This document shows, in pieces, positions 7,543 to 64,000 of a DNA stretch of 64,000 nucleotides. The translations under genes were made by a program, and so were the position numbers. The notes under the pieces were generated by a model. The model saw only the letters and a list, made by a program, of their open reading frames with translations. It was not told where the DNA came from and searched no databases. This DNA comes from Candidatus Uhrbacteria bacterium RIFCSPLOWO2_01_FULL_47_25 (GTDB lineage: Bacteria; Patescibacteriota; Patescibacteriia; GWA2-46-9): the NCBI GenBank assembly GCA_001791325.1, contig MGEK01000004.1, forward strand, positions 8,566-72,565, in the 5' to 3' direction. Numbering within the stretch: the stretch's first letter is position 1; the number at the start of each line of letters is the position of its first letter.

Positions 7543-7663
7543 CCCCGTTAGAAGTCTGACTTAGCATAATAATTGCGGCTCTAGTCATGAATAAATACAT
7601 CAACCAGTTAAACACTATAATCATCACAGCCCCGCATAGCGGGGCCGAGGACTTCTAACGGGG
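7543..7663. mobile_element. MITE/RPE-like palindromic element, family 1 (TIR CCCCGTTAGAAG...CTTCTAACGGGG), copy 1
   Basis: 12-bp perfect terminal inverted repeats; internal GCCCCGCATAGCGGGGC hairpin. It is the reverse-orientation relative of copy 3. Confidence 0.65.
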
Positions 7664-7685
7664 TAGATTTTTAAGGTTAGTTCTA

Positions 7686-10600
7686 TTGGTGAAAATGTCT
7701 AAATTATTGGGGGCAAAAAAAAGAAAAAACCCCGCACATCACGGACGCAATAAGCCAGTGGCGCGGGGCCAAAGACAAGAAACTCGCGCAAAAAAACGCC
7801 TCAAAGAACGTGTTTTGGGCGTTATTCAGCGTCAGGTCAAATTAAGGGAACTAAAAGTTTTGGCGCGGCGCGGCGTCATAGGTACGGTAGTGGTCGTTTT
7901 GTTTATTTCCAGTCTTTTTGTCAGAGCCGAGCCCAATCCGTTGCTTGTTCATGAAGTAATTTATCCGCAGTCTTGCCGTGGCACTTGGCAGGGGATGAAT
8001 AATATTTTTACGCAGGAGCTTGATGCCAGAGCCGAGGCCGATGATTTTAATAAGACCAATAGCGCCATGCCCGCCTTGGGCGAACCAACTGTTGCGGCAG
8101 TGCCGGGCAAGGAAGAGTACAACGCTTTCACGGTGTCATTGCCAATTCTTGACCAGCAGTCAAATGTTGATACGTTGATGGATCAGCCGTCAGATACAGA
8201 TCAGGATTTACAATTGATTATTCCACCCATTATTCCTTCTCAAGAGGAGTCGCCCGTTGAAAACGCGCCTTCTCAAAATACACCCATTGAAGATAATGAC
8301 AATAATAGTGAAAATAAGAGTTTAGAAAACGCTCCTTCAGAACAAGTTCTTGGGGAAGAGGACAAAGCAGATGATTCCAGTCAGCCGGTAACAGACGAAC
8401 AGCTGTCAACGGAGAAATCCAATGAGGAACAGGAACAGCCGTTATCGCCACCCTCACAACCTCAACCCCAAGAGCCGCTAGATACTCAATTATTTCCAGA
8501 ACCTGAAACAAAGCCATTGGCGCCACCCGACGATACGTTGCCAATGCCGACAGAACCGCCGGCAACAGAACCGTCAGGAGCGGAACCGTCGTCAACAGAC
8601 CAGCCGATAATCAATTTCAACAATTTGTTGGATAAACTGATTAATAAAGCTTTGGCCGAGGAAGACGCTATCCTGAATACAGATACCAACGCGAGTACGG
8701 CAGATACAAATGGCGCCGAAACTAAAGTTGATTCTAATAGCGAGGCAGACGGCTTTAGTGTTGAAGACATAGTGAAATCAGTGGCGGAAAAGATTGGAGA
8801 TATTGTTAGCGATTCTGCCGATAAGGTGAGTGAAATCATCGCGCCAATTACGGCGGAGCCAGTGGATATACAAAATTTAACACCCGGCACCCCGTCCCTA
8901 GAAACAAAACCGGAGGCTGAAGATTCGCCGTCTTTGCTCGGCACTTTATTTGATGCGGTGGGGCAGGCAATATCTGCAATTACGGATTTAATTTCGCCAT
9001 TGCCGCCGTCAGTTTTAGAGGCTCCATCATTCGCGATACAGGATAGTAATATCTTAAAAACGGAAAATGGCACAATGGCCTGTGCAGACTTCACCCCTCC
9101 TGCCACCACGCAAATTGAACAGGCGTCGCTCGGTCTATCATATACTTTAAAAGATCAATCGCCATTGCCAAACGAGCAGTCTGGATTTCTATGGGCTGAA
9201 TATACTCAAGATAGACAGAATTGGATGATATTAAGTTCCATTGAAGACACGAACTCATCAGTTGAATCGGCTTATCATTTATTTAATTTTCCTCCCGACT
9301 TTGACGCTGGACGCATAAGCGAGACCATTGTTCGTTTGCGCTGGTTTGGCAAATATGATGAGCCGGAAATTTTTATAGATAGTTTATGGCTAGATGTTGC
9401 TCGCCTTGGCGACAGTGAGCAGGAAAAGCCTTCGGAATTAAAAACCGCTAAAAAAGATTTTGCCGCTTTTGAGGACCCGGTTTTTAATTTAAGCTTTGAT
9501 CCGCAAGTGCCCCTATCAGCAAAGAGAGGCGTCATATTTGATAACAGCCAGTCGCAATCAATCATAGAAAAGTATAAAGAAAGATATAAGCAGTGGCTGG
9601 AATCATGGGCGAATTTTATTATTCAAAAACCATTGTCATTCGCGCGTAACGCGCTGGCGCAATCTCCGTCGGCTGATCAAGCGACGCCAAACGACGCGGC
9701 TCTATGGCATGAGACTAATCTGGATATTTCCGCGCGTCTATTGACTAAGGATTATGGACCCACTGACATTGTTCCAGAATTATTGCGCTTAAATTCCGGG
9801 CAATTCAAAATATCGCTTGCCGCGCGCGCCTTCCGCCCTGGCGCCTATATTTTACAAACAACAATTCAAAAAGGGGAGAGTGTCCAAACCCTAGAACAAG
9901 ATTTCACTTGGGGGGTACTCGTCGTAAATACTGACCAGTCGGTTTATAAAACCGGCGACGAAGCTTCATTCTTCTTTGGGGTCTTGAACGATAAGGGAGA
10001 GACTGCCTGCGACGCGACGCTTGAAGCGAAAATTACGGATCCTGCAGGACAGGCGGTGACACTAGCCACGGCTGACGGCACCATCAAGTCCTCTAGTTCA
10101 TGCGCGAAAAACAGCGTCACTGATACGCCTGACTATGGGGCGACTTATCATACAACCACGGCAGGCACCTATGCACTGGCAGTGACGGCTACGACGGTTG
10201 AGGGGAGCCACACCATCACTGACACTTTTTCAGCACAAGATGACCTTCCGTACCGCGTTCGTCGCAGAGGCGCGAGTCGTATTTATCCTTTGGCCAAGTA
10301 CGAGATGTCAATTGAAGTTACGGCACGCAATGATTTTAAGGGAACTGTTACCGAGCGCGTTCCGTTAGATTTTATTGTCACGCCGTCGTCGAATTTTGTA
10401 ATTACTGCAGTAGAAGACGCCCAAGCATTAACGTGGGATGTTGCGCTTCAAGCAGGAGAGAGCCAAAACTTCACGTACGAGTATAACGCACCTGACATTT
10501 CTCCAGCCATTTTTCATCTGGGAGAATTTTCTTTAACCGCTTCCGGCGCCGATCAGCCGATATTTATTGAACCCAATCAGTGGGAAATAGCGAGCGACGG

Positions 10601-13600
10601 ACTTGACCCAGTTATTATCCACGCGCCAGAGGTGGCGCTCCGTCCAGAAGTGCGCGGAAAGGCCGAGCGATTAGCAAGAGAGGTGCCGCTTCCCGAGAAC
10701 GTTCCGCATCACACCCGTTCAATGGAAGGAAATTTTGAAAGCCGGAAAATGAATAGACCCGTCAGTCTTGCTCTGGCTCGCGAGCAGGTGCCGCCAAACG
10801 CAAAGATTTCTGTTGTTGACGCTTATGGTAAAGAAATTACTGACGGTATCGTAGTAAATACAGAAGAAGATACTATGACCGTGGATATTAACCCCGATGC
10901 TAAAGGTATGCGCCCGGGAAAATATACTCTTTATGTGACGGATCCTGACACCGAAGAAGTGCTGGCTGAACAGGATTACACTTGGGGAGTGTTGGCTTTC
11001 AACCCTGATTATGCCGTGTATCCGCCTAACACAACAGCCAATCTCTCCTTTGGCGTGCTTGATGATGCCGGGCGGGTGCTTTGCGATGCGGCCTTGGTCG
11101 CTATTATTGCCGATCCTAGCGGGAATGAAACAGTGCTTGGCACTGGCGATGGTTCGATACGGGTAAACGAGGAATGCTATCAAATGGAAGATACGCAGAA
11201 ACCAGATTATGAAGCCAACTTTGACACAACTATTCCCGGTATCTATCAAATGACCATCATCGCCAAAAGTAAAAACGGCGAGCGGACGCTCAATGATTCG
11301 TTTTCTGTTGATCCAAACGCCGCGTTTTACCTCAAGCGCACAGGGCCGACCCGCACATATCATCCAGCCACTTACAATTATTCCCTCGACTTTACCGCCA
11401 AAGAGGCTGGCACTTATGACATAACGGAAAAAGTTCCTGCTTCATTTACTATAACGGGTGATGGTTTTACCGTAACCGAACAAGACCAAACAAAAATTTT
11501 ACACTGGCAAGTAACGGCCGTGGCGGGGGAAACTAAAACACTGGCTTATCGTTTCAAAGGACCGCCGCTCTCGCCGTATCTTTTTTTACTGGGAGCGGCG
11601 GAAGTAAAAACATCCAGCCCAAATCAAACATGGGTTGAGCCCAGAGAGTGGATGCTGGCCTCTGACAACGCTTGCTCTTCCGACGTTGATCCTTCTGGAA
11701 ACTGGAATACAGCTGGTTCATGGACCTCATGCGGTGGCGTGGTACCGACGACAACTGACACCGTCGCCATTGTTGACGGCGATACTATCACGATCGACTC
11801 CGCGCCTAATTCTGTCATTTCCGTCAACATCAATCTCGGTGGTACGTTAAATGGCGGCTCGGCGACTCTCAATATCAACAATACCGCCGCATCTGGCACT
11901 TCTTTTACCAATAGCGGTACGTGGACCTCCTCAACCGGCACCGTTAATTTTGGCAGCGACGTTGCGTTAACAATGCTTTCAGGAAGCTTTATTGGTTCTA
12001 ATAATTTCAATAACATTACCCATACTTTTACTCCCACTGCTGCAAGAACATACACCGTGGGCGCGGCAGTTGAGATTGGTGGTAATTGGACGTCAACTCC
12101 GGGGTCTACCAGTAACGCCCGCGATTTAACCATTAATTTAAGTGGAGCAACTACTGTTACTGGGACACTAACTCTTGATGGTCGAGGTTGTAATAATGGC
12201 GCTGCTGATGGCACCGCTTCTACCACGCAATTTTCTACCAATGGCCAGAACTTAACAGTTCGCGCGATAGTTGTTGATGGTATTACGAATGGGGATGGTT
12301 GCCGATTTACCACAGCTAACTCTTCTGTTGTTACGTTTACGGGGACGGGTACTACGACGCTTTTCACTTTAGGTCAGACAGGTAGCACCGCCTTGATGAC
12401 TACCGGGACTACTACTGAATGGGATGTTACTTCCGTGTCAGGCACCCCGACGCTTTTTTCCACTTCCGGGACAACAATTACCGTCCACATTTTAAAAATC
12501 GCTGCCTCCGCAACCATTGTCAACCTTGGCGCAGCCTTTACGATTGACGCCAATTCTGGAAATAAATTATGGATTAATTCTGGCATTTTAAATCAGGAAA
12601 ACAGAACTATTACCGCCGGAGCTAGCGCAACTCTGCAGATTGATTCTGGCGGCACTTTGTGCTTGGGCGGGACAACTGCTTCCACCACGGCTAATTGTGC
12701 GTCAGGCGCGACTCAAGCTACGGCTCAAGCAATGCCTTCGTTTACCACCTATACTTTTGACGCCGCCTCAACCGTTTCCTACCTTTCTAACGCTAACGTC
12801 GTGTTTTCCAGTACCCCGAACTATGGCAACTTAACGCTCAACCCGGTCTTGATCAGCACCAACCGTACCTATACACCTGGAGGAGCCATGACCATTAACG
12901 GTGATTTCACTATCAACCCTAATGAGTCGTTTACCGATACTCCCTCGCTCACCGTCGATCCACTTAATAACTATACCGTGGCCTCTGGTAAAACCACTAC
13001 CATTACGAAGACCAATGCCGCCACTTCTGTTCTTATTCTGCCGTTAGCAGTGAGCCAATACCTGTCAACAGGTAAGTTAGTCATTGCCAGTGGTGGAACA
13101 CTCAATGGTGCTATCAGTTCTGCCACGATTATCATTAAGGACACCGGCGCGGCTTTTACCAATAGCGGCACTTATACTTATGGCCTCACAAAAGTGTCTT
13201 ATACGAACACCACTAGCTCCACTGTGTTAGGCATGACCGGCACCAGTGGCACGAATGGATATTATGATTTAGACATAAATGGCACTGGAGGAACCCATAC
13301 GCTGGGGGCCAACACCACGGCCAATAATGCCACCACCATTACCGCCGGCACCTTAAACACTTCGGCAGCCAGCAGCTTCACTTTGACCACTAGCACCTTG
13401 AGCATCACGGGCGGTCTAACGGCCAATGCCTCGTTTATCAATATAACCGGAGCCGGCGCGGCTTTTACTAAGTCTGGCACATTTACTTATGGTACTTCAA
13501 CAGTTGAATATACTAATGCTACGGGAGCGACTGTTTTGTCTATGAACAATGTTGGCAGCACCAACGCCTATTACACTATTTGGGTTGCCAATGGCTCTCA

Positions 13601-16600
13601 TACTCTCGGAGGGGATATCCGAGTTTATGGCGATTTAGCATCAGTATCTGGCACCCTTTCTGACGCGACTGATAGCGTAACGGTAGTTGGTAGTGTTACT
13701 TGTTTTGCTGCGTTTGCGTGTGGAACCATTACATTTACGGGCGGCACTTTTACCCAGATCGTCGCTGCTAATCAGACTTTTGGCACGAATGCATCAGATA
13801 GTACTATAGATTGGACTTTTAATAACCTGACTTTTGATAGTTCTTCTGGATCAAACACTATTACTTTAGGTAATATAGGTTTGACTGGTACCGGTCAAAT
13901 TATTGTTAATGGAACATTAACAATTGGCACAGGGGGCACAATGACCACTCTGCAGGCTGATACCTATGACCGCATCATTGACGCGAACATCGTGACCATT
14001 ACCTCAAAAGGAATCTTGTTCGCCTCGTCTTCGGCGTTGTTCACCGTTGCCGGAGCATTTACTCATACTTCCGGCGGCACTTTCACTCACAGCAACGGCA
14101 TTGTCACATTTGACGGCACCGCGGCCTTGAATTTTGTAAATAATACAACGACTTTTTATGATGTGGTGGTTGCTACCGGGGTAACAAGAACAATTACCGC
14201 AGGAGCCAGCAATGTTCTTACTATAGCCAATACTCTGACAATTAATGGAACAGGAAGAATGGTCTCATTTTCTTCCGAACAATTGTATCTTACAAAAAAT
14301 GGTGAAACGCCGCTCATTGTGGGCGGGGCAACAGCAGTGAATGGACTAACCCTTGTTGTATATAGGCCAGCTGGCACGGCCACTAACGTCGCCGCCACGA
14401 CTTATAATTACCTCTATATATTACCGACCGCGGCGACGACATTAACCCTTCTCGGCGCAACCACAGTCAACGTCAACCTTTTAGTGACAGGTCCTGGTGC
14501 CGGTATAGTTGCCACTCTGGACACGAATGGCCAAACCCTCAATGTCGTCGGCGCTGTCGTCGCCGGTTTTGGTACACCGGGTGCTGTTATTATAGGCGCG
14601 AGCACAGTGGATGTGGACGGGGATGTATTAATTTGGGATGTTTCCGGAAGCTATATCAGCATGACTTCGGGCAGCTTGAATGTTGGCGGCAACTGGTCTA
14701 ATGGAGCGAATTCAGTCTTTACTGCCGGCACTGGCACCGTTACTTTTGACGCCGCGGACGCCGGTAACACCATCGCCACGGGCGGAACTGACAGTAACCA
14801 TGATTTTTACGATGTCATCTTTGATAATTCAGCCGGCTCTTGGATATTCCAGACAAACGACGTCTTAATCTCCAATAATTTAACCGTCACAAATACATCG
14901 GCCACAGGAGTTAACGCCTCGGTGAATGTGACGGTCAACGGCAGTGTTACTGGAGCGGGTGTAATTAACATTACTAATAGCGTGACCTTTACCCAAAAAG
15001 TGGCAGCCGTCAGTAAGACTTTCGGCACCACCTCTGGTGCCAATGATTGGACATTTTATAACTTAGCCTTTGAAAACTCCTCGGGACCCCGGACCATTGA
15101 TACTAATGGAGGGTCGGGACAAATTATCGTTTCCAATACCCTAACTATTGGTAATGCCGATGATTCCACGGTGACCACTCTTGACAACAACACTACTAAT
15201 GACCGCATCATTGACGCGAACATCGTGACTATTACCTCTAAAGGAAGCTTGACCGCTTCTTCCTCGGCTTTATTCACCATTGCCGGCGATTTCACCAATA
15301 ACGGCACCTTCACGCATAGTAGCGGCACAGTTACTTTTGACGGCGCGAGCGCCAACATTAACATACCAGACGCGGGCATAACATTTTATAAGGTTATTAT
15401 TGATATCAGTAGCCCCAATGCTAAAACCTTAGTGAACGGTGCCACGATTGCCGTGATGACTGTGGCTAACACCCTCACCGTTAATGGCACTGGCGCCTTG
15501 ACTTCCGGAGGAGGCAATGAACAGGTTAAGCTCACCAAAGACGGCGATACCGGAGGAGTGCCTTTAACGGTTGGCGGTGCCACAGCCGTTTCGGGGGTGG
15601 CCGCTTTTATTTACGCTCCGGCCGGCGCCGCCACCACGGTTACCGGAACTACTTACAGCTCTCTTACTATTAACCCTACTGCGGCTACCACGTTGACGTT
15701 AGGCGAGGCTGTCATAACAAGTGGCGCTTTGTATGTCTTTGGTCCCAATAGCACTACCGCCGCCACTCTAAATACAAATAACTACGACCTGACAGTTGGT
15801 GGAGCCTTGTTTGTCGGTGCATGGTATTTGGGTTATGCCGATGGAGTGGTTAATTTGGGAAGCAGTACGGTTACGGTGAGTGGGGACGTTTGGATAATGC
15901 AAGATACGGGATCCGAACTTGATGCCGGCTCATCTACCCTGACGGTTGGCGGAAACTGGGTTTGGTTTTCCGCCTTTAGCTCCGGCGGTATTTTTACGGC
16001 GGGCACGAGTACCGTCAAATTTAATGCCGGTGATGCAGGGAATACCATTGATGCCGGCGCCGGCGCGTTTAACAACGTTATATTTGACAACGCCGCCGGC
16101 TCCTGGACGTTTCAGACCACGGCGGCGACAATTTCTGGAGATCTCACCATGACCGCGGCCACGCAGGTTAACGCTTCGGTTAATGTTACAGTGAACGGCA
16201 ATGTATCGTGCGGTGTGACATGCGGAACGATTAATATCACAAACGCTGTTACGTTTACCCAATCCGTTGACGCGGCTAAGAATTTTGGCACCAGCGTTGT
16301 CGATGACGCAACAGTCTGGACATTTAGCAGTCTGACCTTTACAGCCACTACAGATACCATAACTACTAGCTCCAATGGCACCGGCAATATAAATGTTACT
16401 GGCACCTTAACTATTTCCGGCTCAACTACTCTGGATGCCGGCGATCGTAATTGGGTTCTATCCGGCGCTGGCACGCCCTTCGCGCGAACCGGAACTTTCA
16501 CCGGAAACACATCCACTTTTAATTATACTTCAACCACCGGAGTTGACGCCCTTTCCTCGGCCGCCATGACCGGTTCTAATGCCTACTACAATCTCACTAT

Positions 16601-19600
16601 CAACTCTTCCGGCGACACCTTCACGGCTGGTGTGGCTGTTGCGGCTACTAACAAAGTGCTCGTAACCGCCGGTATCCTTGCCATGGGTGCCAATGCTTTG
16701 ACCGCAGGCTCCACAGGTGTCACTGACTCTGGCCAAATTAGTGTGGCTTCCGGTCATTCTCTAACCTCAAGTGGCACCGTCACCATCGTTAGCTCGGCCG
16801 CAAGTACAGCGAGTTGCCTTGGCGGAACAACCCTGCCGGGGTGCACTGGCGCAGTGGGCACACTCACTTTATCCACTCTTGTTATCGGTGACGGAGCCAC
16901 CACCATGACCACGGCTTTTGGTGGTACCACTCCGAGCATGGCCATTTCTACGCTTCTCAATATCACTACGAACGCCACCTTCACCGCCGGTACGGGAAGT
17001 ACTATTACTTTGTCAGCGGCTGGCACTCCCATTACTCGAGACGGGAACTTCAGATGCGGTACAAGCACGGTTGCTTATACTTCCTCCACCGGAGTTGACG
17101 CCCTGTCTTCGGCCGCCATGACCGGTGACTGCACAACCGGAAACGCCTTCTACAACCTAGTTATAAACGGTACAAACAATTTTCCCGTTACTAACGATAT
17201 TATTGTTACTAATAATTTAACCGTGACGGCAGGGTCACTTACTGGTACAAGCAATGTAACCGCCAACAGTAATGTTGCCTGTGGCGTTACTTGCGGCTCG
17301 ATTACTTTGACCGGCGGCACGTTTCTCCAATCAGTAGGGGATGCCAAAAATTTTGGCACAAATGTAGACGAAGACGATACTTGGACATTTAACAATCTTA
17401 CTTTTACAGCCACCACAGATACCATAACCACGAGTTCCAATGGTACTGGCAACATAAATGTTACTGGCGACTTAACTATTTCCGGCTCAACCACTCTGGA
17501 CGCAGGAGACAGAACATTCGTTTTGTCAGGTAGTTCCGGCTCGCCGTTCGTGAAAACAGGCACTTTCACTTACAATACTTCCACGATTAAATATACTGGT
17601 ACGACAGTAACGGTATTATCTATGACCGGCACCGGTGGTAGTGATGGGTACTATAATCTCACGGTGGACGGCACCGGGCCATTTAACGCCGGCGGAGCAA
17701 TTGTAGCAAATAACGATGTCACGGTAACGTCCGGCACACTGGCTATGGGGGCGAACGCCCTCACAGTGAACGGCGGCGACATCTCGGTCAGCGGTATCTT
17801 CTCGCAAACCGCGGGCAGCGCCACCACAGTTGTCACTACTGGCTCCATTGGAGGCGCGGGTACTACGACCTTTGGCGAGCTTAACATTGGCACTGGTTCA
17901 AGTGACCAAACTACTACGGCTGGCGGCGACTTCACTGTCTCCGGCGTTCTGACCACTGTCTCATCTTCCAGCACCAACAATTTTGACGCTTCTTCTAAGA
18001 CCATCACCCTCTCGGGCACAGGCACGCCGTTTGTGAATAACGAGACGTTTACTTATGGGACTTCCACTATAAAATACACTGGCAGTGATACCACCACAGT
18101 TCTTGCGATGACTGGCACCGGTGGGACAAATGGATATTATAAATTGATAACTCAAGGCACAGGTCCGTTTAACGCTGGCGGAAGTATCACAGCCAACAAC
18201 AATATCAACATTACGAGCGGCACTTTTGCCGTTGGCGGAAACACCTTAATTGGTGCCAATATCACTGTTGACGGCGGTTCGTTGTCGGCAACAACGAGCG
18301 GCGGAAAAATTAAAATTTCCGGCGGCGGAGATTTGTCCGTCACGAGCGGAAGCATTGTTACGGCTGATGTGGCGACCCCGGTTGAAATCACAAGTTCTGA
18401 TACCGCTACGCCAACCTATGTTGGCGTGAGCGTTACTGGCGCTTCCAGTACAATAAATATCCCCGAATTGGATATTGATTATTTAAAGAGCACGGGATTT
18501 GTCGTTGGCGCGAGCGTTACCGTCACGGCCATGGATAAGGTGAGATGGGGCGGGAGCGGTGGAACATGGAATGGACAGGCGGCGGTGGGCGAAGTGCTGT
18601 TAGACGCCACGAGTTTAACTAAGACGCTTGATGGTCATGTTTTTCCAAATACATGGGCGAGCCAAGGCGGTTCTGATTGCAACGTCAGAGCGAATACTGA
18701 TGGTACTGTCACCATGACAAATTTTTCCGGAACATATAGTGGCGAAGACTATGATTGCGATAATGGCGGTACGGTAACATGGGTCAGCGGGCTCTCGATA
18801 GCCGGCACGGTTTATACTGACGAAGGGTCAACTCGTATGACCACTGGACCGACCGTGCGCGTAAAAGTTGATGGAGCAGGGGACTTCAGTGATGTGGCAG
18901 ATACTACCAATTGCCCGGGGAGTAGCCCCTGCGGTGAATACCTTATCACAGGTGTCACTCCTACGGACAGCGGAGCAGTGCTTACGATTTATCTTGATGA
19001 TGAAACAGAGAATGCCACCACTGTCACCATATCGAGCGGCTTGGATTTAACGGGCATAGACCTTTACCAAAATCGTGTCATCGTGCGATACGAAACCGGC
19101 AGCAGTATTACTAATACCAATTTAGACCAATATGACTGGGTTAACGAAGGTGATGCGAATATTGATGGAGACATTGGTTTCCAGGTGACAGCCGGCGCTT
19201 TGACAGTCTCTAAAGACAGAGAACTCCACATCTGGACAGGCAAGACTTTCACGCCGGGCGGAAGCGTTACCACAAATACCGGAGGCAGTGGAGTTGGTGG
19301 AGACGTCCATATTGTGGGAATTTTTACAGCCACGACTACCGAGAGTCATTCGGTCGGCGGCTCCTGGACTGATACTGGCACGTTCAATCCCGCCAGCTCA
19401 ACGGTCACGTTTGCCGCCACCTCTGGCACGAAAACCATCACTTCAACCGGCTCGTCATTTTATAATTTGATTATCAACGGTTCGGGCGGCGAGTTTCAGC
19501 CACAAGACGCCATGGTTGTTACAAACGACCTTACTATAACCGCGGGCACGCTGTCGGGAACGCAAAACGTGACGGTTAACGGCCATGCTGTAGGTACCGC

Positions 19601-21356: not shown

Positions 21357-21360
21357 TGAA

Positions 21361-21516
21361 GAATATGGAATATTGAATATGGAATATAGGGATGTGCTGT
21401 GAAGAATATGGAATATTGAATATGGAATATAGGGATCGTTGATTTGAGAAAATTAATTGAAGAATATAAAATTTAGAATATAGGGATCGAACGGTGGAGA
21501 ATATTGAATATACATT
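21361..21516 (+). repeat. promoter-proximal block: (GAATATN)4 - 15 bp - (GAATATN)4 - spacer - GAATATAAAATTTAGAATATA - GGGATCGAACGGTGGAGAATATTGAATATACATT. It is near-identical to 26901..27056
   Basis: Direct comparison: 21389-21516 is identical to 26929-27056; the first heptamer arrays differ at 2 positions. Confidence 0.85.
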
Positions 21517-22953
21517 ATGAAAAGTGAGATTAAGTCATTTAGAGATTTGGTGGTATGGCAAAAAGCATCTGCTTTGGCAACTTTGCTGTATAAAGTTACG
21601 GAAAATTTTCCTAAAACAGAAATATATGGAATAACAAGTCAGATGCGACGGGCAGCGGTATCGGTTTCTTCTAATATTGCCGAGGGATTTAAAAGAAATT
21701 CAAAAAAAGAAAAAGTGCAGTTTTATTCAATGGCTTATGGGTCTCTTTCGGAATTGGAAAGTCAAATAGAAATTTCTTTTCGTCTGGAATATTTAACAAT
21801 TACTAACTACGATCAAATTTTATCCGCAATCAACGAAGTTTCTCGACTCCTAGACGGTATTATTAGGTCCACTAATAGAAATTATCAAAGTAGGTTTGAT
21901 GTTCTCGTTGCTGTATCTATATTCTATATTCTATATTCTATATTCCCAATCTCACCGGCTAATGCTGGTGAAATTGGTCTGGCTGTCACAAGAAACCGCT
22001 TTGATATTGAGATGCTCTCGGGCGACACATACAAGGGTGATTTAGCCGTGTATAATAAATCAGCAGACGCCGCCTTGCCTGTGCACGTGGAATTGGCGCT
22101 CTGGAACATTAAAGAGGATTCTGAAGATATTGAGTTTGTTCAAGCGGAGTCATTGCTTAATGCCACACGTTGGTTTGAGGTTCAGCCGAAAGATTTTATT
22201 TTAGACCAAGGCGGCGATAGGCAAATTAAGTTTGAGATCACGGCTCCCAAAGACGCTTCGCCCGGAGCGTACTTGGTAATGATGCGTTTTCAGGCGGTTT
22301 TGCCGGAACATTATTTTTTGAAAGAAGGTCCAAGATTTTTGCCCGAGATTGGCGTTTTGTTTTTCATCAATGTCAGAACACTGGCCATTGACAGCGCGGC
22401 AGAAAATAATCGCTTAAATATCGTTTCATTTGAACCCGAAGGGACGCATCGCTTAACTTTTATTGACCGTTACGTGGTAAGTCCTGCCAATGCTGGCGTA
22501 TTTGACGAAGCAGTAAAAAAATTAGTGGCTAAAATTGAAAATAAAAGCATCTATTATTTTAAAGCCTCCGGCTTTGTCGTTATTAAAAACTTGTTTGGCC
22601 AGACAGTGTCACTCATTAAAATTCCCGAAAAATTTTTACTTCCCAACCGTACTCGCAGCATCCCCATCACCGTTATCACACCACCAACGGAACAATCAAA
22701 ATCCAATATTCTATATTCCATATTCTATATTCTTCAACAACAAACATACCTCGGCCCCTACACCGCGACACTAACGCTCAACGTTCCATCAAGCAATGGG
22801 GGAGTAGAGCCAATTTCAGAATCAATCAATTTCTGGATTATCCCATGGAAGTTTTGGTCGGCCGTTATTATTATAGCGTTGTTAATCGCGTTCATTATAT
22901 TAAAATTGCGGCGTCGGCTTCGGCCGGCACTAAGTGCGCTGATCGGACGCTGA
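21517..22953 (+). CDS. four-helix-bundle (23S rRNA IVS protein / Avd-like) domain fused to TM segment, DUF916-like surface domain and C-terminal TM anchor
   Basis: N-terminus FRDLVVWQKA...FPKTEIYGITSQMRRAAVSVSSNIAEGFKRNS matches the TIGR02436/PF05635 signature. Downstream WFEVQPKDF...VPKDASPGAYLVMMRF and the terminal hydrophobic helix + RRRLR resemble CscA/DUF916 proteins. Confidence 0.7.
   Translation: MKSEIKSFRDLVVWQKASALATLLYKVTENFPKTEIYGITSQMRRAAVSVSSNIAEGFKRNSKKEKVQFYSMAYGSLSELESQIEISFRLEYLTITNYDQILSAINEVSRLLDGIIRSTNRNYQSRFDVLVAVSIFYILYSIFPISPANAGEIGLAVTRNRFDIEMLSGDTYKGDLAVYNKSADAALPVHVELALWNIKEDSEDIEFVQAESLLNATRWFEVQPKDFILDQGGDRQIKFEITAPKDASPGAYLVMMRFQAVLPEHYFLKEGPRFLPEIGVLFFINVRTLAIDSAAENNRLNIVSFEPEGTHRLTFIDRYVVSPANAGVFDEAVKKLVAKIENKSIYYFKASGFVVIKNLFGQTVSLIKIPEKFLLPNRTRSIPITVITPPTEQSKSNILYSIFYILQQQTYLGPYTATLTLNVPSSNGGVEPISESINFWIIPWKFWSAVIIIALLIAFIILKLRRRLRPALSALIGR
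21918..21945 (+). repeat. (TATATTC)4 heptamer array inside the CDS at the 4HB/TM junction (inverted relative to the upstream GAATATN arrays)
   Basis: Read directly; encodes IFYILYSIF. Confidence 0.85.
22705..22732 (+). repeat. second (NATATTC)4 heptamer array inside the same CDS, just before the C-terminal TM anchor
   Basis: AATATTC TATATTC CATATTC TATATTC. Confidence 0.8.
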
Positions 22954-23031: not shown

Positions 23032-23463
23032 ATGGATATGAACAAGGTTAAGGATTTCTTGTATGAAAAGGAGTCGTATCAGATTAGAGGAGCGTGTTTT
23101 GATGTTTATAAAGCATTTGGTGGAGCATTTAAGGAAAAAATAGTGGATCGGGCGCTTACTAAATCTCTGGCTAAACGCGGATTAAAAGTGGACGAACAAA
23201 AACGTATAAACATTTTGTATGATGGTGAAAAAATTGGTACCTATATTCCCGACAAAATCGTAAATGATGCTATTATTTTAGAAGTGAAGGCAAAAAGTTT
23301 TATCACCAAAGATGATATAGATCAATTTTGGAAATATTTGAAAGGGTCAGACTATAAATTAGGATTCCTTGTAAATTTCGGTCCGGCAAAATTAGAAATA
23401 AAAAGAGTGGTATATGATTCAGCCAGACCAGTTCGGCGTGTTTCGGCGTCCTTATCGGCGTGA
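23032..23463 (+). CDS. GxxExxY family protein (PD-(D/E)XK nuclease-like)
   Basis: YEKESYQIRGACFDVYKAFGGAF...LEVKA...FLVNFGPAKLEIKRV: the family's diagnostic motifs. Confidence 0.75.
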   Translation: MDMNKVKDFLYEKESYQIRGACFDVYKAFGGAFKEKIVDRALTKSLAKRGLKVDEQKRINILYDGEKIGTYIPDKIVNDAIILEVKAKSFITKDDIDQFWKYLKGSDYKLGFLVNFGPAKLEIKRVVYDSARPVRRVSASLSA

Positions 23464-24959: not shown

Positions 24960-25904
24960 ATGAAAATTCGCTACTCGCCATCATCCTTTATTGCTTTTTT
25001 AGTCGGTGGATTAACGGTGGGCGTGATCATGTCGCCAACCGCAGTGATGGCGCAAGCAGTAAAAACTCTCACTATCTCACCCCTCACTTTTGAACTAACC
25101 GCCAATGCGGGCGAGACTATATCTAATGTCTTAAAGATATATAACAATAACGATTTTAATATATCAGCCAACATTGATGTTGAAGATTTTGCTCCGGCCG
25201 GAGAGACCGGTCAAGCAGTGGTTACCGAACCGCAGGAGGATAATACCTATTCTTTGGCTCGTTGGATTACGGTTGAGGAAGAAACATTTGAAATAGAGGC
25301 ACAAAATTTTCGGCCGATTACTTTTCATGTTAACGTTCCCCTGAACGCCGAGCCGGGAGGGCACTACGGAACAGTACTTGCTTCTATCGCCGATGGTGGT
25401 GGCGAGGGCGGAGTTAGCGTGGCATCTAAAGTAGGCGCGCTTTTACTGCTTCAGGTGGCTGGTACGGCTAAAGAGTCTCTAAACGTCGCCAGTATGGGAG
25501 CGCCGAATTTTTCCGAATACGGGCCCGTAACCATTGCCACGAGATTCCAAAATACTGGCACTGTCCATTTAAAGCCGCGGGGGTTTATTTTAGTGCAAAA
25601 TATGTTTGGCCAAGAAACAGCCAAATTAAATTTAGACCAGAAAAATGTGTTGCCTAACTCGGTGCGTAGGATAGAATCAAAATTAGACGAGAAATGGCTA
25701 TGGGGTAAATATACGGCGACCTTGACGGCGATTTACGGTTCAACCAATGAGCCACTTTCTTACACCACAACTTTTTGGGTGATCCCTTGGCGGGTGAGTT
25801 TGGCTGTCGGCCTCATACTATTGATCGTTTTCATTATTCTTTATCGGGCTCGTCGGCGGATATTTTTGGCGCTCAAAATTCTCTTAAAGGGTGAACATAG
25901 TTGA
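24960..25904 (+). CDS. DUF916/DUF3324-like cell-surface protein with C-terminal membrane anchor (CscA-like)
   Basis: Signal peptide; WITVEEETFEIEAQNFRPITFHVNVPLNAEPGGHYGTVLAS; C-terminal TM LAVGLILLIVFIILY + RARRR. Paralogous to the C-terminal half of 21517..22953. Confidence 0.55.
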   Translation: MKIRYSPSSFIAFLVGGLTVGVIMSPTAVMAQAVKTLTISPLTFELTANAGETISNVLKIYNNNDFNISANIDVEDFAPAGETGQAVVTEPQEDNTYSLARWITVEEETFEIEAQNFRPITFHVNVPLNAEPGGHYGTVLASIADGGGEGGVSVASKVGALLLLQVAGTAKESLNVASMGAPNFSEYGPVTIATRFQNTGTVHLKPRGFILVQNMFGQETAKLNLDQKNVLPNSVRRIESKLDEKWLWGKYTATLTAIYGSTNEPLSYTTTFWVIPWRVSLAVGLILLIVFIILYRARRRIFLALKILLKGEHS

Positions 25905-25974
25905 AGAATATAGAATACAGAATCTAGAATAGAGAACTTGGAACATGGAATTTAAAACATGGAATTTAAAACAC
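25905..25974 (+). repeat. ten tandem 7-bp units (AGAATAT AGAATAC AGAATCT AGAATAG AGAACTT GGAACAT GGAATTT AAAACAT GGAATTT AAAACAC) between the CscA-like gene and the dockerin gene. The dockerin gene start codon lies within the array
   Basis: Strict 7-bp periodicity read directly. Confidence 0.8.
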
Positions 25975-26894: not shown

Positions 26895-26900
26895 TTGTAA

Positions 26901-29996: not shown

Positions 29997-30020
29997 CGGG
30001 TAGTGGCAGTTTTGAGTTGA

Positions 30021-32148: not shown

Positions 32149-32253
32149 CCCCATTAGAGAATGCCCCGCCCCGCTACGCCACGGCGGGGTGCGGGGTGCA
32201 ATTTTCCCATACGAGCACGGGGTCTAATGCCCCGTGCGAGTTCTCTAACGGGG
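32149..32253. mobile_element. MITE/RPE-like element family 1, copy 2 (CCCCATTAGAGAATGCCCCGC...CTCTAACGGGG)
   Basis: TIRs; flanked by TTAA / TTAAC direct repeat; begins immediately after the rplU TAA. Confidence 0.65.
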
Positions 32254-34480: not shown

Positions 34481-34602
34481 CCCCGTTAGAAGCCCTCGGC
34501 CCCGCTATGCGGGGCTGTGGTGATTAAAATATTTAATTGGTTGATAGATTGTACCATAACTATAAGGATTGATGATTATATTAAATTAGGCTTCTAACGG
34601 GG
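34481..34602. mobile_element. MITE/RPE-like element family 1, copy 3, abutting the dnaB start codon (element...GGGG-T-ATG on the minus strand)
   Basis: TIRs CCCCGTTAGAAG / CTTCTAACGGGG; CATA direct repeats at both flanks. Confidence 0.65.
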
Positions 34603-35431: not shown

Positions 35432-35533
35432 ACCCCGTTAGAGAATGCCCCGCTCCGCCCCGCCGCGGCGGGGTGCAATTTCCCCGTACGAGCACGACGG
35501 GGTCTAATGCCCCGTGCGAGTTCTCTAACGGGG
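35432..35533. mobile_element. MITE/RPE-like element family 1, copy 4
   Basis: CCCCGTTAGAGAATGCCCCGC...GTGCGAGTTCTCTAACGGGG. One frame translates without stops to NPVRELARGIRP...GAFSNGV (spurious ORF 35425..35649). Confidence 0.65.
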
Positions 35534-40952: not shown

Positions 40953-40953
40953 T

Positions 40954-51210: not shown

Positions 51211-51419
51211 ATCTCAGTTTGCGTCGACAGACATAGGGAAGTAACCTTTAAAATAGATTAATTTGTACTAGAATATCCGATATTTATTATGTAAAAACTC
51301 TCATACTACATAGTATGATAGTTTTAGATCATTATAATATTGTACGACACAAAAATTACTGTTAATAATTGATCAATGAGTGCTATACTGAATACAGCCC
51401 ATAATCAAGGAGGGACAAA

Positions 51420-62113: not shown

Positions 62114-62131
62114 TGTAGAAAACAGTGAGCT

Positions 62132-64000
62132 ATGTCAATCAGGCGTTCGTCTAATGATCAATTTGCCAGCATAGTTCCGTTAGTTTATATACCTCGCGGA
62201 TTTGATCAGGAGTTTATTTATCGCATACCACGAACAGTGGTAAACCCCGTTAGAGAACTGGCACGGGGCATTAGACCCAGTGCTCGTACTGGTAAATTAC
62301 ACCCCGCGGAATCCACCAGCTGGCGGAGTGGGGCATTCTCTAACGGGGTAAATATAGTCGCCGGTCAGCCGGTCACGGTTAATTTTCGCAAAAAAACAAT
62401 TCAAGGAATAGTGCGTCGCACGTTTAATAAGCCGGCATCTTTAAAAACAATACTAGATATTAAATCAGTACTTCCATATCTCCCGTTAACAAAGGGGCAA
62501 TTGGCGATCATAGATACATTAGAAAATTATTATGGCGCTAGCAGGACTTTAGCCTATAAGACGGTGGTTGTAAAATTCGCTATGAATCTAAGGTTGGAGC
62601 ATAAGCGATCTCATCAAAAAATTAAATATCCAGCGCTTACTGAAACAAATCAACAAACGCTCCTTTTACTTCTTCGGGCTAAACCCAAACTTACCATCAG
62701 CGGCGCGCTTTATGATCCGCGCCATTCTTTATTTATTGAGTATATACGCCAACGCATCAAAAACAAGGGCCAGATCCTTTTGCTTTTTCCAGATAATGAG
62801 TCAGCAGAAATTGTTAAAGAGTCTTATGAAAAATATTTTAATGAGGCCGCTTTGGTAATTTGGTCATCTCAAGCGCCTATTGGTCAGCTCAGTCGAGACT
62901 GGATGCGCATTAGCACGGGAGAGGCTAGCATCATATTAGCCACGCGGAGCGGGCCATTTTTACCATTTAAATCTTTGCGAGCGATCATCCTTTTTGATGA
63001 AGCCGACAATAATTATAAATCATGGGATCAACAGCCATATTACGATACAAGGCTACTTGCCGAAAAGTTATCGGAGACTGAACAAATACCTTTGCTGACA
63101 ACACGGCTTTTGCCGCCCTTACAATCACGTCACCAAGTGCTTAGTATAATTTCCAGAAAAAAAGCTGCTTTAGTAACTATTTTTGATCGTCAAACGCTTT
63201 ATAAAGAAAACCCCAAGGCTATTATCCCCGAAGAAGTAATGACCTTCATTGGAAAATCGTCGCCAAGCGAGCAGAGCTTGGTTTTTATTAATCGTCTCGG
63301 TTACGCGGCTCTTTTTTGTCGCGATTGCGGCTATATTTTTCGCTGCCAGAATTGCGATACACCGTTAATACATGTTTCAAACCAATCCAATGGAGCGAAT
63401 ATACGATGTTACAAATGCAGTCACGTTGCCATAACACCTGTCTTTTGTCCACAGTGTCGTTGTGTCCACCTGCGATATTTTGGCGTCGGAGTAGAAAGAA
63501 TACACGAAGAGTTAATTAAACAATTCCCCCATAAACGTATTCAACGCCTAGACCGCGCTTATTTAAAAACCGGCCCCAGTCTTCAGCAGTTGCTTGATAA
63601 TATTAGAAACCATCGCGTTGATATTACAATAGCTACCTCTATTATTCTGCCGCGTCTGTGGTCTTTACCTTTATTCAACACGACAGTGGTCTTACAGGCC
63701 GAAAGCTTATTTTTGACAACGGGTTGGCGGGCTTATGAAAATGGATTAACCGCTCTTCGTCAACTGCGAACAGCTACTAAAGGGCATTTTTACGTTGAAA
63801 CAAGTTTGCCCAATCATCCAGTGATTAAATCTTTGCAGTCAACAAATCTAAAAAACTTTTTCACTAGTGAGCTTGCTGAAAGAAAAAGATTTAACTATCC
63901 TCCATATTCCAGGTTGATCAAATTAATTGCCAAAAGAAGTGACGCTGGCATAAGCTCTAATGAAATTGGCAGATTGGGCAATATTGAAACGATTGAAATA
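62132..64000 (+). CDS. priA: primosomal protein N' (PriA), 3'-truncated by window end, carrying an in-frame 108-nt insertion (MITE family-1 copy 6 + target duplication) in its N-terminal domain
   Basis: Frame 2 open from ATG 62132 to the window end (not in the ORF track because no stop is reached). IPRTVV[insert]IVAGQPVTVNFRKKTIQGIVRR is a PriA 3'-DNA-binding-domain pattern. Downstream Cys4-Cys4 zinc module CRDCGYIFRCQNCDTPL...CYKCSHV...CPQCRC. Confidence 0.75.
   Translation, partial: MSIRRSSNDQFASIVPLVYIPRGFDQEFIYRIPRTVVNPVRELARGIRPSARTGKLHPAESTSWRSGAFSNGVNIVAGQPVTVNFRKKTIQGIVRRTFNKPASLKTILDIKSVLPYLPLTKGQLAIIDTLENYYGASRTLAYKTVVVKFAMNLRLEHKRSHQKIKYPALTETNQQTLLLLLRAKPKLTISGALYDPRHSLFIEYIRQRIKNKGQILLLFPDNESAEIVKESYEKYFNEAALVIWSSQAPIGQLSRDWMRISTGEASIILATRSGPFLPFKSLRAIILFDEADNNYKSWDQQPYYDTRLLAEKLSETEQIPLLTTRLLPPLQSRHQVLSIISRKKAALVTIFDRQTLYKENPKAIIPEEVMTFIGKSSPSEQSLVFINRLGYAALFCRDCGYIFRCQNCDTPLIHVSNQSNGANIRCYKCSHVAITPVFCPQCRCVHLRYFGVGVERIHEELIKQFPHKRIQRLDRAYLKTGPSLQQLLDNIRNHRVDITIATSIILPRLWSLPLFNTTVVLQAESLFLTTGWRAYENGLTALRQLRTATKGHFYVETSLPNHPVIKSLQSTNLKNFFTSELAERKRFNYPPYSRLIKLIAKRSDAGISSNEIGRLGNIETIEI
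62245..62348. mobile_element. MITE/RPE-like element family 1, copy 6 (reverse orientation of copies 2/4), inside priA, in frame, without stop codons
   Basis: CCCCGTTAGAGAACTGGCACGGGG...GGGGCATTCTCTAACGGGG; flanked by GTAAA direct repeats; encodes NPVRELARGIRPSARTGKLHPAESTSWRSGAFSNGV. Confidence 0.7.

Follow-up and report, generated by a model that had tools for sequence, protein, structure and literature searches.

Short inverted-repeat elements in Candidatus Uhrbacteria and a candidate parent element encoding a GIY-YIG nuclease

Correia elements make a TA duplication and carry terminal inverted repeats (TIRs) of 26 bp. Together with Chunjie (Geobacter; 178–235 bp) and the QMITEs (Coxiella), these Neisseria elements are examples of the prokaryotic MITEs defined in a 2024 review. 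Such elements are shorter than 500 bp, fold into stable stem-loops and are dispersed in multiple copies; they have short TIRs and target AT-rich intergenic sequence, the direct repeats on their flanks decay as they age, and they originate by internal deletion of a longer element (PMC10969869). The elements described here are alike in all these respects. They differ in that the apparent parent is a ∼280-bp element with a GIY-YIG gene only, rather than an insertion sequence with a transposase, and in that the same 13-bp ends enclose unrelated cores across at least 10 phyla.

Rickettsia palindromic elements (RPEs) are inserted in frame within genes and translated, and REPs have neither TIRs nor target-site duplications (TSDs) and use a Y1 (HUH) transposase. 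Like RPEs and REP/RAYT, the present elements are short palindromic repeats proliferating in compact genomes and, as REPs do, they may rely in trans on one domesticated gene of nuclease type; unlike both, their insertions avoid gene interiors and make 4-bp TSDs. The likeness to RPEs and Correia, named as the closest analogues in the first-pass annotation, is one of form only.

Six copies in the 64-kb window

In the window, that is, the whole stretch of 64,000 nucleotides that was analysed, six copies in two subtypes and both orientations had been noted. All six were recovered at those places, with the start of copy B2 now set at 35433: the 11-mer CCCCGTTAGAG (at most one mismatch) had 12 matches in the window versus 0.62 expected, a number reached in 0 of 100 shuffles. 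A relaxed search of the window (at most two mismatches) gave no extra copies (45 matches versus 44 in shuffles). The features are as follows:

5505..5515, + strand: isolated CCCCGTTAGAA, adjoining a tRNA-Gln 5' fragment, no partner end
7543..7663, + strand: copy A1, subtype A, 121 bp, TIR CCCCGTTAGAAGTC / GACTTCTAACGGGG
32149..32253, + strand: copy B1, subtype B, 105 bp, left TIR with one change (CCCCATTAGAG)
34481..34602, − strand: copy A2, subtype A, 122 bp, inverted relative to A1
35433..35533, + strand: copy B2, subtype B, 101 bp, perfect 13-bp TIR CCCCGTTAGAGAA
40807..40952, + strand: copy A3, subtype A, long variant, 146 bp, left TIR CCCCGTTAAAAG
62245..62348, − strand: copy B3, subtype B, 104 bp, inverted relative to B1

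These elements are 101–146 bp long and their ends read CCCCGTTAGAR...YTCTAACGGGG. The division into subtypes was borne out by identity and GC content, with 73–82% identity among the A copies (37–46% GC) and 85–91% among the B copies (60–68% GC). The TSD was perfect in four of the six, namely TTAA at B1 (32145–32148 and 32254–32257), CATA at A2 (34477–34480 and 34603–34606), TATG at A3 (40803–40806 and 40953–40956) and TAAA at B3 (62241–62244 and 62349–62352), and three of four bases matched at A1 (TATA, 7539–7542; TAGA, 7664–7667) and B2 (TTTA and TTTG). A TSD of 4–5 bp had been proposed; the 4-bp length stands, whereas TTAAC and GTAAA each take in one base of the TIR, its first or its last.

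Several TSD copies coincide with the start or stop codon of a neighboring gene. The left TSD copy of B1 contains the stop codon TAA of rplU (L21), the gene-proximal TSD copy of A2 includes the ATG with which dnaB starts (34479, minus strand), and the ATG of a Na+/H+ exchanger gene (40954) comes from the right TSD copy of A3. The distal TSD copy of A2 reads ATG CCC CGT TAG, a Met-Pro-Arg-stop mini-ORF. A1 (fold z = −6.25) is located between metK and a 4556-aa ORF (start 7686), and tRNA-Lys follows 40 nt downstream of B2.

The sequence at 5505–5515 had been regarded as a solo end. One exact 10-mer is present there, and ∼0.12 such matches are expected by chance per 64 kb (2 × 64000/4^10). Its flank, CTGG, is not of the YNNR type described below, its inner sequence is atypical and its position 12 is a T, which is rare in the family. 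It may be a truncated end or a chance match, and the two are indistinguishable.

Ends, target sites and insertion across the family

Our genome scan demanded exact termini, so positions 1–11 are conserved by construction among the scanned copies, and it is the loci reached through protein searches (see below) that provide independent support. The 132 copies span at least 10 phyla, the hosts including Patescibacteria, Omnitrophota, Planctomycetota, Desulfobacterota, Nitrospirota, Elusimicrobiota and others. Thus, the family, described at first as lacking a name for this lineage, is not lineage-specific; no name for it was found in the literature searched.

TIR boundaries were consistent across all 132 copies, and the TIR, previously put at 11–14 bp, proved to be sharply bounded at 13 bp, the modal length of the perfect repeat. 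It consists of CCCCGTTAGA and three variable bases that are complementary end to end: in 92 of 130 copies the two ends were identical to each other at positions 11–13 (12.7 expected with permuted partners), whereas only 10 of 130 matched at positions 14–16. The flanks were duplicated exactly over 4 bp in 79/132 copies versus 0 at shifts of 1–3. The target was YNNR, mostly TNNA; its first base was T in 84% and its fourth was A in 83%. Identical flanks were absent in 53 of the 132 short copies and in six of the eight full-length elements whose flanks were read.

The site of A3 was empty in three syntenic relatives (L211, L212 and L213; exchanger 70–73% identical). In these relatives, 9–11 nt separate DUF192 from the exchanger gene; in the window, a 10-nt spacer is followed by the 146-bp element with TATG on either side. 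At three loci (L010, L019 and L068), genes were disrupted by the element. Insertion is thus demonstrated by the exact TSDs, by the orthologous sites that are empty and by the disrupted genes, and the six repeats in the window are mobile DNA insertions of a non-autonomous transposable element (MITE) family, as the first-pass annotation had proposed. Insertions inside genes were fewer than expected (23 versus 60), and those on stop/start codons were more frequent (15 versus 2.9 with tetramer-matched controls; z = 7.5). That the elements settle at gene boundaries is probably why they survive in compact genomes, and at full-length copies the duplicated target and the terminal base restore the stop and start codons of the neighbors.

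The same data bear on the reading that the repeats are immobile and serve the host either as a structured RNA, be it RAGATH-4-like, a terminator or a hairpin that stabilizes mRNA, or as paired DNA-uptake sequences, which can hardly be the explanation. Every copy does fold stably, with the TIR closing the stem (z = −5.0 to −6.8), inner TIR positions co-vary and copies sit at gene ends. RAGATH-4 (RF03153) is of similar size (131 nt), its consensus (uuua / CcCaauagg...ccauuGgG / UUUA) has a CCC...GGG inverted repeat with TTTA direct-repeat flanks, and it aligned weakly but end to end with B2. However, B2 is a non-member, with 17.9 bits versus a gathering score of 104.4, and the terminal sequences are unlike; RAGATH-4 may itself be a sister MITE-like family. 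No Rfam gathering score was reached, 104 of 130 cores had no similarity to any other, promoter/terminator signals were not consistent, and the motif was almost never single, unlike an uptake sequence. An RNA function is compatible with mobility and no substitute for it; as the sole explanation, it is contradicted by the TSDs and empty sites, as well as by the disrupted genes.

The full-length GIY-YIG element and its proposed role in mobilization

Full-length members of the family are ∼277–281 bp long and comprise the left TIR, a leader of 8–13 nt and a single ORF of 86 codons, which encodes a stand-alone, UPF0213/Slx1-like GIY-YIG nuclease and fills the whole ∼280-bp element. The right TIR forms the last four codons, S-L-T-G (TCT CTA ACG GGG), and the ORF takes its stop codon from the flank (TAA or TGA in five of eight elements read). 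The same TIRs surround the GIY-YIG ORF (PF01541, E = 5e-14) at L038 6919–7199 and L002 3773–4160. Protein homologs formed 1,744 clusters; among the best 120 listed, 76 were of exactly 86 aa, 65 of these 76 ended in KRFLSLTG, and the catalytic residues were conserved, with Y3, Y5, Y16, T17, G18, R26, H30 and E50 invariant in at least 97% of the 76. N-terminally extended variants start with M(S/N)PVR(D/E), which is the translated left TIR. The closest sequence relatives with solved structures are UPF0213/prokaryotic Slx1-like proteins (1zg2, E = 3e-7; 1ywl, E = 0.3, alone not significant), from which the present subfamily is set apart by its C-terminal tail (...GMGKRYLKNRLKRFLSLTG), which is basic and conserved and has its end encoded in the TIR. 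A minimal GIY-YIG domain of ∼90–107 aa without auxiliary domain is typical of UPF0213/Slx1-like proteins (PMC1564403); their function or mobile context was not found in the sources searched.

Both TIRs were also present at loci fetched by protein identity rather than by DNA motif (L255, L269, L261, L270/L272 and L277). L255 and L269 had perfect TGAA/TGAA duplications. The empty site of L255 is an ATGA stop/start overlap, and insertion kept the upstream stop and re-made a GTG start for the downstream gene. The GIY-YIG gene was co-oriented inside operons (pgk-tpi and nuoJ-nuoK), with both called neighbors co-oriented in six of six loci fetched in this way. L277, which is full-length, and the short copy L060 come from one MAG (CAYZYT01).

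Phage T4 seg genes are free-standing GIY-YIG homing endonuclease genes that spread by 'intronless homing'. They too are small selfish genes with a GIY-YIG catalytic domain, wedged among conserved co-oriented genes, and a gene of this kind, with the short elements as immobile remnants decayed in place, would fit the fold classic for homing endonucleases (PMC1564403), a weak NCBIfam match to a group I intron endonuclease (23.3 bits versus a cut-off of 56) and insertions without TSD, including L277, for which blunt insertion fits the flanks better. Nevertheless, this is very unlikely. Homing leaves no TIRs or TSDs and recognizes an uninterrupted target, not its own ends (PMC1564403), whereas 13-bp TIRs and exact 4-bp TSDs were found here at many unrelated sites. 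Homing endonucleases also have extra DNA-binding domains and no MITE-like derivatives, and the 86-aa protein lacks a NUMOD-type domain. Moreover, the short copies form subfamilies within a genome at different loci with different TSDs (three A and three B in the window; 73–91% identity), which indicates that gene-less copies multiply.

The ∼120-bp copies are internal deletions of the full-length element. L043 (123 bp) joins parent positions 1–102 to 254–281, and a 3' coding remnant of the gene was matched at 7 or more of 12 positions by 23 short copies (2.7 expected). Such deletions would form, for example, between two GAAGCGCTTC repeats within the gene. The A and B copies of the window have only 10–14 bp of terminus in common with full-length elements, and what links them to these is the TIR, the TSD and the continuity of the family rather than internal homology; judged from these sequence features, both subtypes would belong to the same mobilization group as the GIY-YIG elements.

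A search for an autonomous partner encoding a transposase had been suggested. It yielded the ∼280-bp GIY-YIG element as a candidate, and no conventional transposase: no DDE transposase was found at the loci searched, no end pair 0.7–4.5 kb apart enclosed a transposase in the loci scanned, and no protein family recurred near the copies, the ORFs adjoining solo ends being housekeeping genes. It is still conceivable, though unlikely, that these are conventional MITEs moved in trans by a DDE transposase (for example, IS1380/piggyBac-like), with the GIY-YIG ORF as a passenger. A 4-bp TSD with short TIRs and a symmetric target is the classical footprint of DDE transposases, we know of no GIY-YIG nuclease that carries out transposition, and no GIY-YIG gene lies within the 64-kb window. 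IS1380 and piggyBac resemble the present family in 4-bp duplications (4–5 bp in IS1380), ends starting CC(C) and a T...A-type target (TTAA in piggyBac), and IS1380 is, to our knowledge (ISfinder table), the sole bacterial IS family with 'CC' ends and 4–5 bp duplications. However, 73 environmental IS1380 elements end in CC[CT][AG][AG]AT and none in CCCCGTTAGA, and no IS1380-like ORF (PF13701) occurred in any MITE locus; IS1380 as the mobilizing family thus found no support. Nor is the GIY-YIG ORF loosely carried: an ORF that fills the element, overlaps the TIR and has a near-invariant C-terminus is an arrangement typical of an element's own mobility gene.

Taken together, the GIY-YIG element appears to be the autonomous partner of the MITEs, and the window elements are probably non-autonomous copies of a family whose full-length members encode this nuclease, which we infer to be their mover. 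Acting in trans, the nuclease would recognize or cut the ends and mobilize full-length and short copies alike. No description of a ∼280-bp transposable element with a GIY-YIG gene as its sole gene was found in the literature searched. The parent element is a new result, and it represents a kind of transposable element that is apparently undescribed.

Copies in the window and across phyla

With at most one mismatch, CCCCGTTAGAG was matched 12 times in the window, compared with 0.62 matches expected, and none of 100 shuffled sequences reached 12. The matches pair into six elements, which agrees with the six palindromic copies proposed in the first-pass annotation, and these belong to two subtypes, each with copies in both orientations.

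Copies in the window (window positions, strand, subtype)
7543-7663, plus strand, subtype A
34481-34602, minus strand, subtype A
40807-40952, plus strand, subtype A
32149-32253, plus strand, subtype B
35433-35533, plus strand, subtype B
62245-62348, minus strand, subtype B

Subtype A copies are 73-82% identical to one another (37-46% GC) and subtype B copies 85-91% (60-68% GC). The flanks of the six copies read TATA/TAGA, TTAA/TTAA, CATA/CATA, TTTA/TTTG, TATG/TATG and TAAA/TAAA, that is, a target-site duplication (TSD) of 4 bp that is exact in four copies and matches at three of four bases in the other two. A duplication of 4-5 bp had been suggested; the duplication itself stands at 4 bp, and the 5-bp versions include one base of the terminal inverted repeat (TIR). 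No additional copy was found in the window by a relaxed search, and matches with up to two mismatches were as frequent as in shuffled sequences. A solo end previously placed at 5505 was not counted, being a single exact 10-mer (∼0.1 expected by chance) with atypical flank and inner sequence. All six copies fold into stable stem-loops (z = -5.0 to -6.8). Neither a GIY-like nor any other ORF of at least 30 aa was detected in the copies, and promoter and terminator scans inside them gave nothing consistent.

To characterize the family more widely, one genome per species was scanned with the pattern CCCCGTTAGAR-N(75-105)-YTCTAACGGGG, which gave at least 119 loci (132 copies listed).

Listed loci by group (assigned by record title)
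Patescibacteria, 46
Omnitrophota, 20
Desulfobacterota-type, 16
Planctomycetota, 13
Nitrospirota, 4
Elusimicrobiota, 2
Stahlbacteria, 2
Edwardsbacteria, Bdellovibrionales, Gammaproteobacteria and Clostridia, 1 each
Unclassified, 12

The listed copies are 92-146 bp long and those of the window 101-146 bp, all below the 500-bp size limit of miniature inverted-repeat elements (MITEs). An exact 4-bp TSD was present in 79 of the 132 listed copies and in none of them when the right flank was shifted by 1-3 bases; it was mostly T-N-N-A (T 84%, A 83%), positions -5 and +5 being a purine and a pyrimidine, respectively. TIR positions 1-11 were imposed by the search pattern in these copies, position 12 was mostly a purine, and sequence conservation was absent from position 13 on. 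A perfect TIR of at least 13 bp was observed in 90 of the 132 copies. Since positions 11-13 were the same at both ends of one copy in 92 of 130 cases (12.7 with permuted partners) and positions 14-16 in only 10 of 130, the TIR is a sharply bounded 13-bp sequence whose inner three positions co-vary. For 104 of 130 cores, similarity to any other core was undetectable, and only a few short modules were common to different phyla. Internal copies of the terminal motif are enriched in the cores, with CCGTTAGA present in 15 of them (0.3 expected). The identical 13-bp ends in many groundwater and sediment phyla point to a shared mobilising enzyme or to repeated transfer of elements between phyla, and the evidence for actual transfer is limited to these few modules, most copies having no core sequence in common. 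In viral contigs the family is essentially absent: the paired pattern had no match there, and the single-end pattern had 41 mostly chance-like matches, with a MITE-like pair in locus L239 only. An apparent end that recurred in five viral contigs reflects homologous phage genomes.

Some loci carry miniature forms of 29-38 bp consisting of two TIRs and a short loop (L039 1262-1291, L047 2379-2416, L031 6559-6587 and L239 3962-3990), and tandem or nested arrays of copies are seen in L046, L066, L067, L027 and L091. The window also contains several other repeats and parasitic-looking features.

Other features in the window
7388-7425, 38-bp perfect palindrome TATATACAAATTGTGACGATCGTCACAATTTGTATATA, directly downstream of metK and upstream of the copy at 7543-7663
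31580-31609 and 51295-51324, two copies of the 30-bp near-perfect palindrome AAACTATCATACTATATAGTATGATAGTTT
7686-21356, ORF of 4,556 aa with many internal repeats (families D4, D6, D8, D10-D13), directly downstream of the copy at 7543-7663
21357-21968, 26897-27529 and 30018-30248 (also 22696-22755 and 25900-25944), ORFs of the 23S-rRNA-intervening-sequence type, four-helix bundle (PF05635, E ∼1e-38)
28602-29996 and 30127-31527, neighbouring ORFs with cohesin domains
23032-23463, stand-alone small PD-(D/E)XK_3 nuclease gene (PF13366, E = 5e-30)
5481-5504, 5539-5590 and 5663-5714, tandem partial tRNA-Gln 5' halves, spacing ∼124-128 bp
37888-38344, minus strand, cluster of duplicated or decayed tRNA genes: tRNA-Thr 38012-38083 and truncated copy 37888-37946; tRNA-Gly(CCC) 38195-38265 and diverged neighbour 38272-38342

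The PF05635 ORFs are a second kind of parasitic mini-gene; GAATAT/ATATTC heptamer-like repeats flank them on both sides in inverted arrays, and in-frame fusions join them to the 5' ends of larger genes (ORFs 21517-22953 and 27057-28595). The PD-(D/E)XK_3 gene, found amid the GAATAT-flanked cassettes, may be a further selfish mini-gene. The tRNA-Gln halves lie between a type IV secretion coupling protein gene (358-2916) on their upstream side and an intact tRNA-Gln(CTG) (5791-5863) on their downstream side, and the whole array (5481-5863) resembles the scarring left when integration or recombination occurs repeatedly at a tRNA.

Empty sites and gene boundaries

The comparison of filled and empty sites proposed in the first-pass annotation was made for the copy at 40807-40952 (one of the six window sites), downstream of which lies a Na+/H+ exchanger gene. 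Three relatives (L211, L212 and L213), whose exchanger is 70-73% identical to that of the window, keep the gene order DUF192-exchanger-PPIase-protease, and their site is empty, with a spacer of 11, 9 and 9 nt, respectively, between the DUF192 stop and the exchanger ATG. The window has at the same site a 10-nt spacer, TATG, the 146-bp element and a second TATG. Removal of the element and one TATG restores TTTTTAAGGT directly followed by ATG, and the exchanger N-termini align with those of the relatives. On the basis of empty sites and disrupted genes, the copies are mobile elements. The contigs of GCA_001002965.1 and GCA_001791155.1 that encode identical flanking proteins represent the same population (99.8-100% identical to the window) and are hence uninformative in this respect; an exchanger homolog annotated as Candidatus Uhrbacteria has 54% identity to that of the window. 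When all loci were compared with one another, no orthologous sites overlapped. Against contig LCND01000032 (GCA_001002965.1), to which it is otherwise identical, the window shows indels of 108 bp (33370-33477) and 120 bp (43094-43213). One of these falls within dnaB, and the end of another contig is exactly at 33369; the indels may stem from the assembly or from variation in the population.

Insertion sites were compared with gene positions by reconstructing empty sites, with crude gene calls and controls matched for the target tetramer. Gene interiors were avoided (23 of 78 copies inside genes, 60 expected), in contrast with Rickettsia palindromic elements, which lie in frame within genes and are translated as part of the host protein. 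A weak frame-keeping excess, with length + 4 divisible by 3 in 55 of 130 copies, was not significant (chi-square p ∼0.08). Among the 55 non-disruptive insertions, 15 had a stop or start codon within the 4-bp target (z = 7.5), stop codons accounting for 9 (1.3 expected) and start codons for 6 (1.6 expected). In the window, the codons concerned are the stop of rplU (target TTAA) and the starts of dnaB (CATA) and of the exchanger gene (TATG). Where a start codon is duplicated, its upstream TSD copy begins a mini-ORF of three codons, ATG CCC CGT TAG/TAA (Met-Pro-Arg-stop), which ends within the TIR. A TSD of TATG/CATA is nearly always a gene's start codon (window 34477-34606 and 40803-40956; L051, L062 and L076), and the three A-type copies all have the same direction relative to the downstream gene. 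It should be noted that copies cause mis-annotated gene ends and starts, visible as PR-stop C-termini, MSPVRD N-termini and upstream-extended ORFs.

Identical flanks were absent from 53 of the 132 listed short copies, in which the left flank was mostly TTYA and the right flank mostly TRAA, and from six of the eight full-length elements whose flanks were read. On the coding side, TRAA provides a stop codon for the GIY-YIG ORF of the full-length element, which does not account for the flank bias of the short copies because these have no ORF. A palindromic 8-bp target was not supported for copies without a TSD, their perfect inverted flanks occurring at about the chance rate. One full-length element (L277) is compatible with blunt insertion only, and another locus (L068) with insertion of the element plus 4 bp, with non-identical 4-mers.

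A full-length element encoding a GIY-YIG nuclease

Two longer elements with the same ends, both in Omnitrophota loci (L038 and L002), led to a candidate parent. In coding orientation, the L038 element (6919-7199, 281 bp) is preceded by TTAA in the flank and runs CCCCGTTAGAGAT, TGGTTGAGGA, ATG and so on to AAG CGC TTC CTA TCT CTA ACG GGG. Its left TIR is followed by a short leader and then by an ORF of 86 codons, the final four of which (S-L-T-G) form the right TIR. This ORF encodes a GIY-YIG catalytic domain (PF01541, E = 5e-14). The same gene in L002 is interrupted by a nested short copy, and a decaying GIY-YIG gene adjoins a short copy in L044 (Saccharibacteria). The protein has 1,744 homologous clusters. 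Of the listed 120 homologs with the best scores, 76 have a length of exactly 86 aa, and 65 of these 76 end in KRFLSLTG; longer annotated variants read through past L-T-G into the flank or begin at an upstream start, M(S/N)PVR(D/E), which is the translated left TIR. The catalytic and structural residues Y3, Y5, Y16-T17-G18, R26, H30 and E50 are unchanged in 97% or more of the 76 sequences of 86 aa, of which the median pairwise identity is 73%. Among solved structures, the closest are those of two UPF0213 proteins, 1zg2 with E = 3e-7 and 1ywl with E = 0.3, a value without significance by itself; they are of a type classed as minimal stand-alone Slx1-like GIY-YIG domains (PMC1564403).

Six further loci were fetched by protein identity, independently of the DNA motif, and both TIRs were present in every one of them.

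Full-length elements fetched by protein identity (locus, length, flanks)
L255, 277 bp, TGAA/TGAA, perfect TSD
L269 (982-1258), 277 bp, TGAA/TGAA, both outermost bases changed (TCCC...GGGA)
L270 and L272, 279 bp, TTTA/TAAA
L277, 280 bp, TTTA/CGAG
L261, 279 bp, TGCA/GTAA, then a decayed second copy

In all six, the GIY-YIG gene is co-oriented with both neighbours and wedged into an operon, such as pgk-[GIY]-tpi, nuoJ-[GIY]-nuoK and methyltransferase-[GIY]-glycosyltransferase or glycosidase. The reconstructed empty site of L255, CTAAAATGAAAATC, is an ATGA stop/start overlap; after insertion, the upstream stop is kept in the left TSD copy, the GIY-YIG ORF ends at the TGA of the right copy, and a GTG start for the downstream gene is recreated from the terminal G of the element plus TG. 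In L269, the terminal A and the TSD form an ATG for the downstream gene, and the first base of the left TIR is T, so that the ends are still complementary.

Short copies include deletion derivatives of this element. A 123-bp copy (L043) corresponds to parent positions 1-102 joined to 254-281, with the deletion lying between two GAAGCGCTTC repeats, one coding for ...RKRF... in the early part of the gene and the other for ...LKRF... at its end; L073 resembles this copy. The 3' coding remnant is matched at 7 or more of 12 positions by 23 short copies (2.7 expected), and one MAG holds both a full-length element (L277) and a short copy (L060). No GIY-YIG gene is encoded in the window, and its A and B subtypes have 10-14 bp of terminus in common with the full-length elements and nothing more; we infer that they belong to the family from their identical ends, identical footprint and a continuum of intermediates. 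The ∼280-bp element, with the TIRs and TSD of the MITEs and its deletion series, is not an insertion sequence (IS) with a known transposase.

Mobilisation, known systems and biological meaning

Terminal repeats, duplications, a target preference, overlap of gene and TIR, a deletion series and an intact nuclease signature are all observed in this family. We tentatively propose that the 86-residue stand-alone GIY-YIG (UPF0213/Slx1-like) nuclease is the mobility enzyme of the ∼280-bp element, a reading that falls somewhat short of even confidence. The nuclease would act on the ends and mobilise full-length and short copies in trans, and the complementarity of the ends, seen at positions 11-13 and in the T...A pair of L269, would fit a Slx1-like structure-specific enzyme whose substrate is a stem that both ends form together. 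The main rival, less likely but still plausible, is that an unseen DDE transposase mobilises the copies and the GIY-YIG gene is cargo. No protein family recurs near the copies, the nine ORFs that adjoin solo or relaxed ends encode housekeeping proteins (for example, OEP, SurA, SecD, MoxR, RmuC, S1 and ETF), and longer stretches between matching ends in the 119 loci listed were coincidental pairs of separate copies only. No bacterial IS family other than IS1380 is known to combine CC ends with 4-5 bp duplications. Its relatives were collected from an ISEcp1 seed verified as PF13701, a profile was built and 80 metagenome loci were fetched; in the part of the family sampled, 73 environmental elements end in CC[CT][AG][AG]AT and none like CCCCGTTAGA, and no IS1380-like ORF (PF13701) was matched by phmmer in the MITE loci.

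Free-standing GIY-YIG homing endonucleases resemble the full-length relatives (not the window copies) in their catalytic domain, the catalytic residues being intact, whereas they carry an auxiliary DNA-binding domain, have no TIR or TSD and recognise an empty target instead of their own ends; here, a single-domain protein of 86 aa is combined with 13-bp TIRs and 4-bp TSDs. Correia/IS630-type MITEs duplicate TA, whereas the duplication here is 4 bp at YNNR, and a match of length 2 was found in 9 of the 132 listed copies. REP/RAYT systems have a Y1 IS200/IS605-like gene and no TSD; a TSD is present here, and no such gene was found among the ORFs scanned near copies. Compared with integron attC sites (RYYYAAC ... 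GTTRRRY), the two motifs stand in reversed order (GTTAGAR left, YTCTAAC right), R replaces Y as the seventh base, and a cassette array is missing. A conserved structured RNA, named in the first-pass annotation as the alternative to mobility, fails as the sole explanation, given that no Rfam threshold was reached and empty sites exist. At gathering and permissive thresholds, Rfam gave nothing except a sub-threshold match of one copy to RAGATH-4 (RF03153; 17.9 bits, gathering threshold 104.4). The RF03153 consensus has a CCC...GGG terminal inverted repeat with TTTA on both sides, and RAGATH-4-type ends read CCCAATAGG; what is catalogued as an RNA motif may thus represent a sister family of MITE-like elements.

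Among the features that define prokaryotic MITEs (PMC10969869), small size with no coding capacity, a TIR of ∼4-30 bp, a TSD, presence/absence variation and a stem-loop are found here. The same 2024 review names no Patescibacteria, Omnitrophota or Planctomycetota hosts (PMC10969869), and a MITE survey across 183,000 genomes mentions neither these phyla nor GIY-YIG. A non-exhaustive literature search (the motif, MITEs, IS families, RAGATH-4, Chunjie, GIY-YIG with TIR/TSD, and UPF0213) found no description of the family, and the sources searched gave no assigned function for the UPF0213 proteins, of which at least two members (1zg2 and 1ywl) have structures from structural genomics. UPF0213 and stand-alone GIY-YIG proteins would gain a likely role and a testable substrate, the 13-bp TIR beside a YNNR flank.

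If the nuclease moves the element, TIR/TSD transposition would have a new enzymatic route and an element of ∼280 bp would be autonomous, which bears on how mobile DNA evolves and might offer a very compact insertion tool. Such an element would be the smallest autonomous DNA transposon we know of. It would belong to a class of prokaryotic transposable elements in which a GIY-YIG nuclease takes the place of the DDE, HUH, serine or tyrosine enzyme, with a large MITE retinue across at least 10 bacterial phyla, genome-streamlined Patescibacteria included. It would also be adapted to operons, borrowing host transcription, taking its stop codon from the TSD and regenerating the downstream start codon from its terminal base and the TSD. 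The ultra-small, streamlined genomes of Patescibacteria do carry dense mobile repeats, six copies per 64 kb in the window, and this load is tolerated because copies land exactly on gene boundaries, where stop and start codons are preserved.
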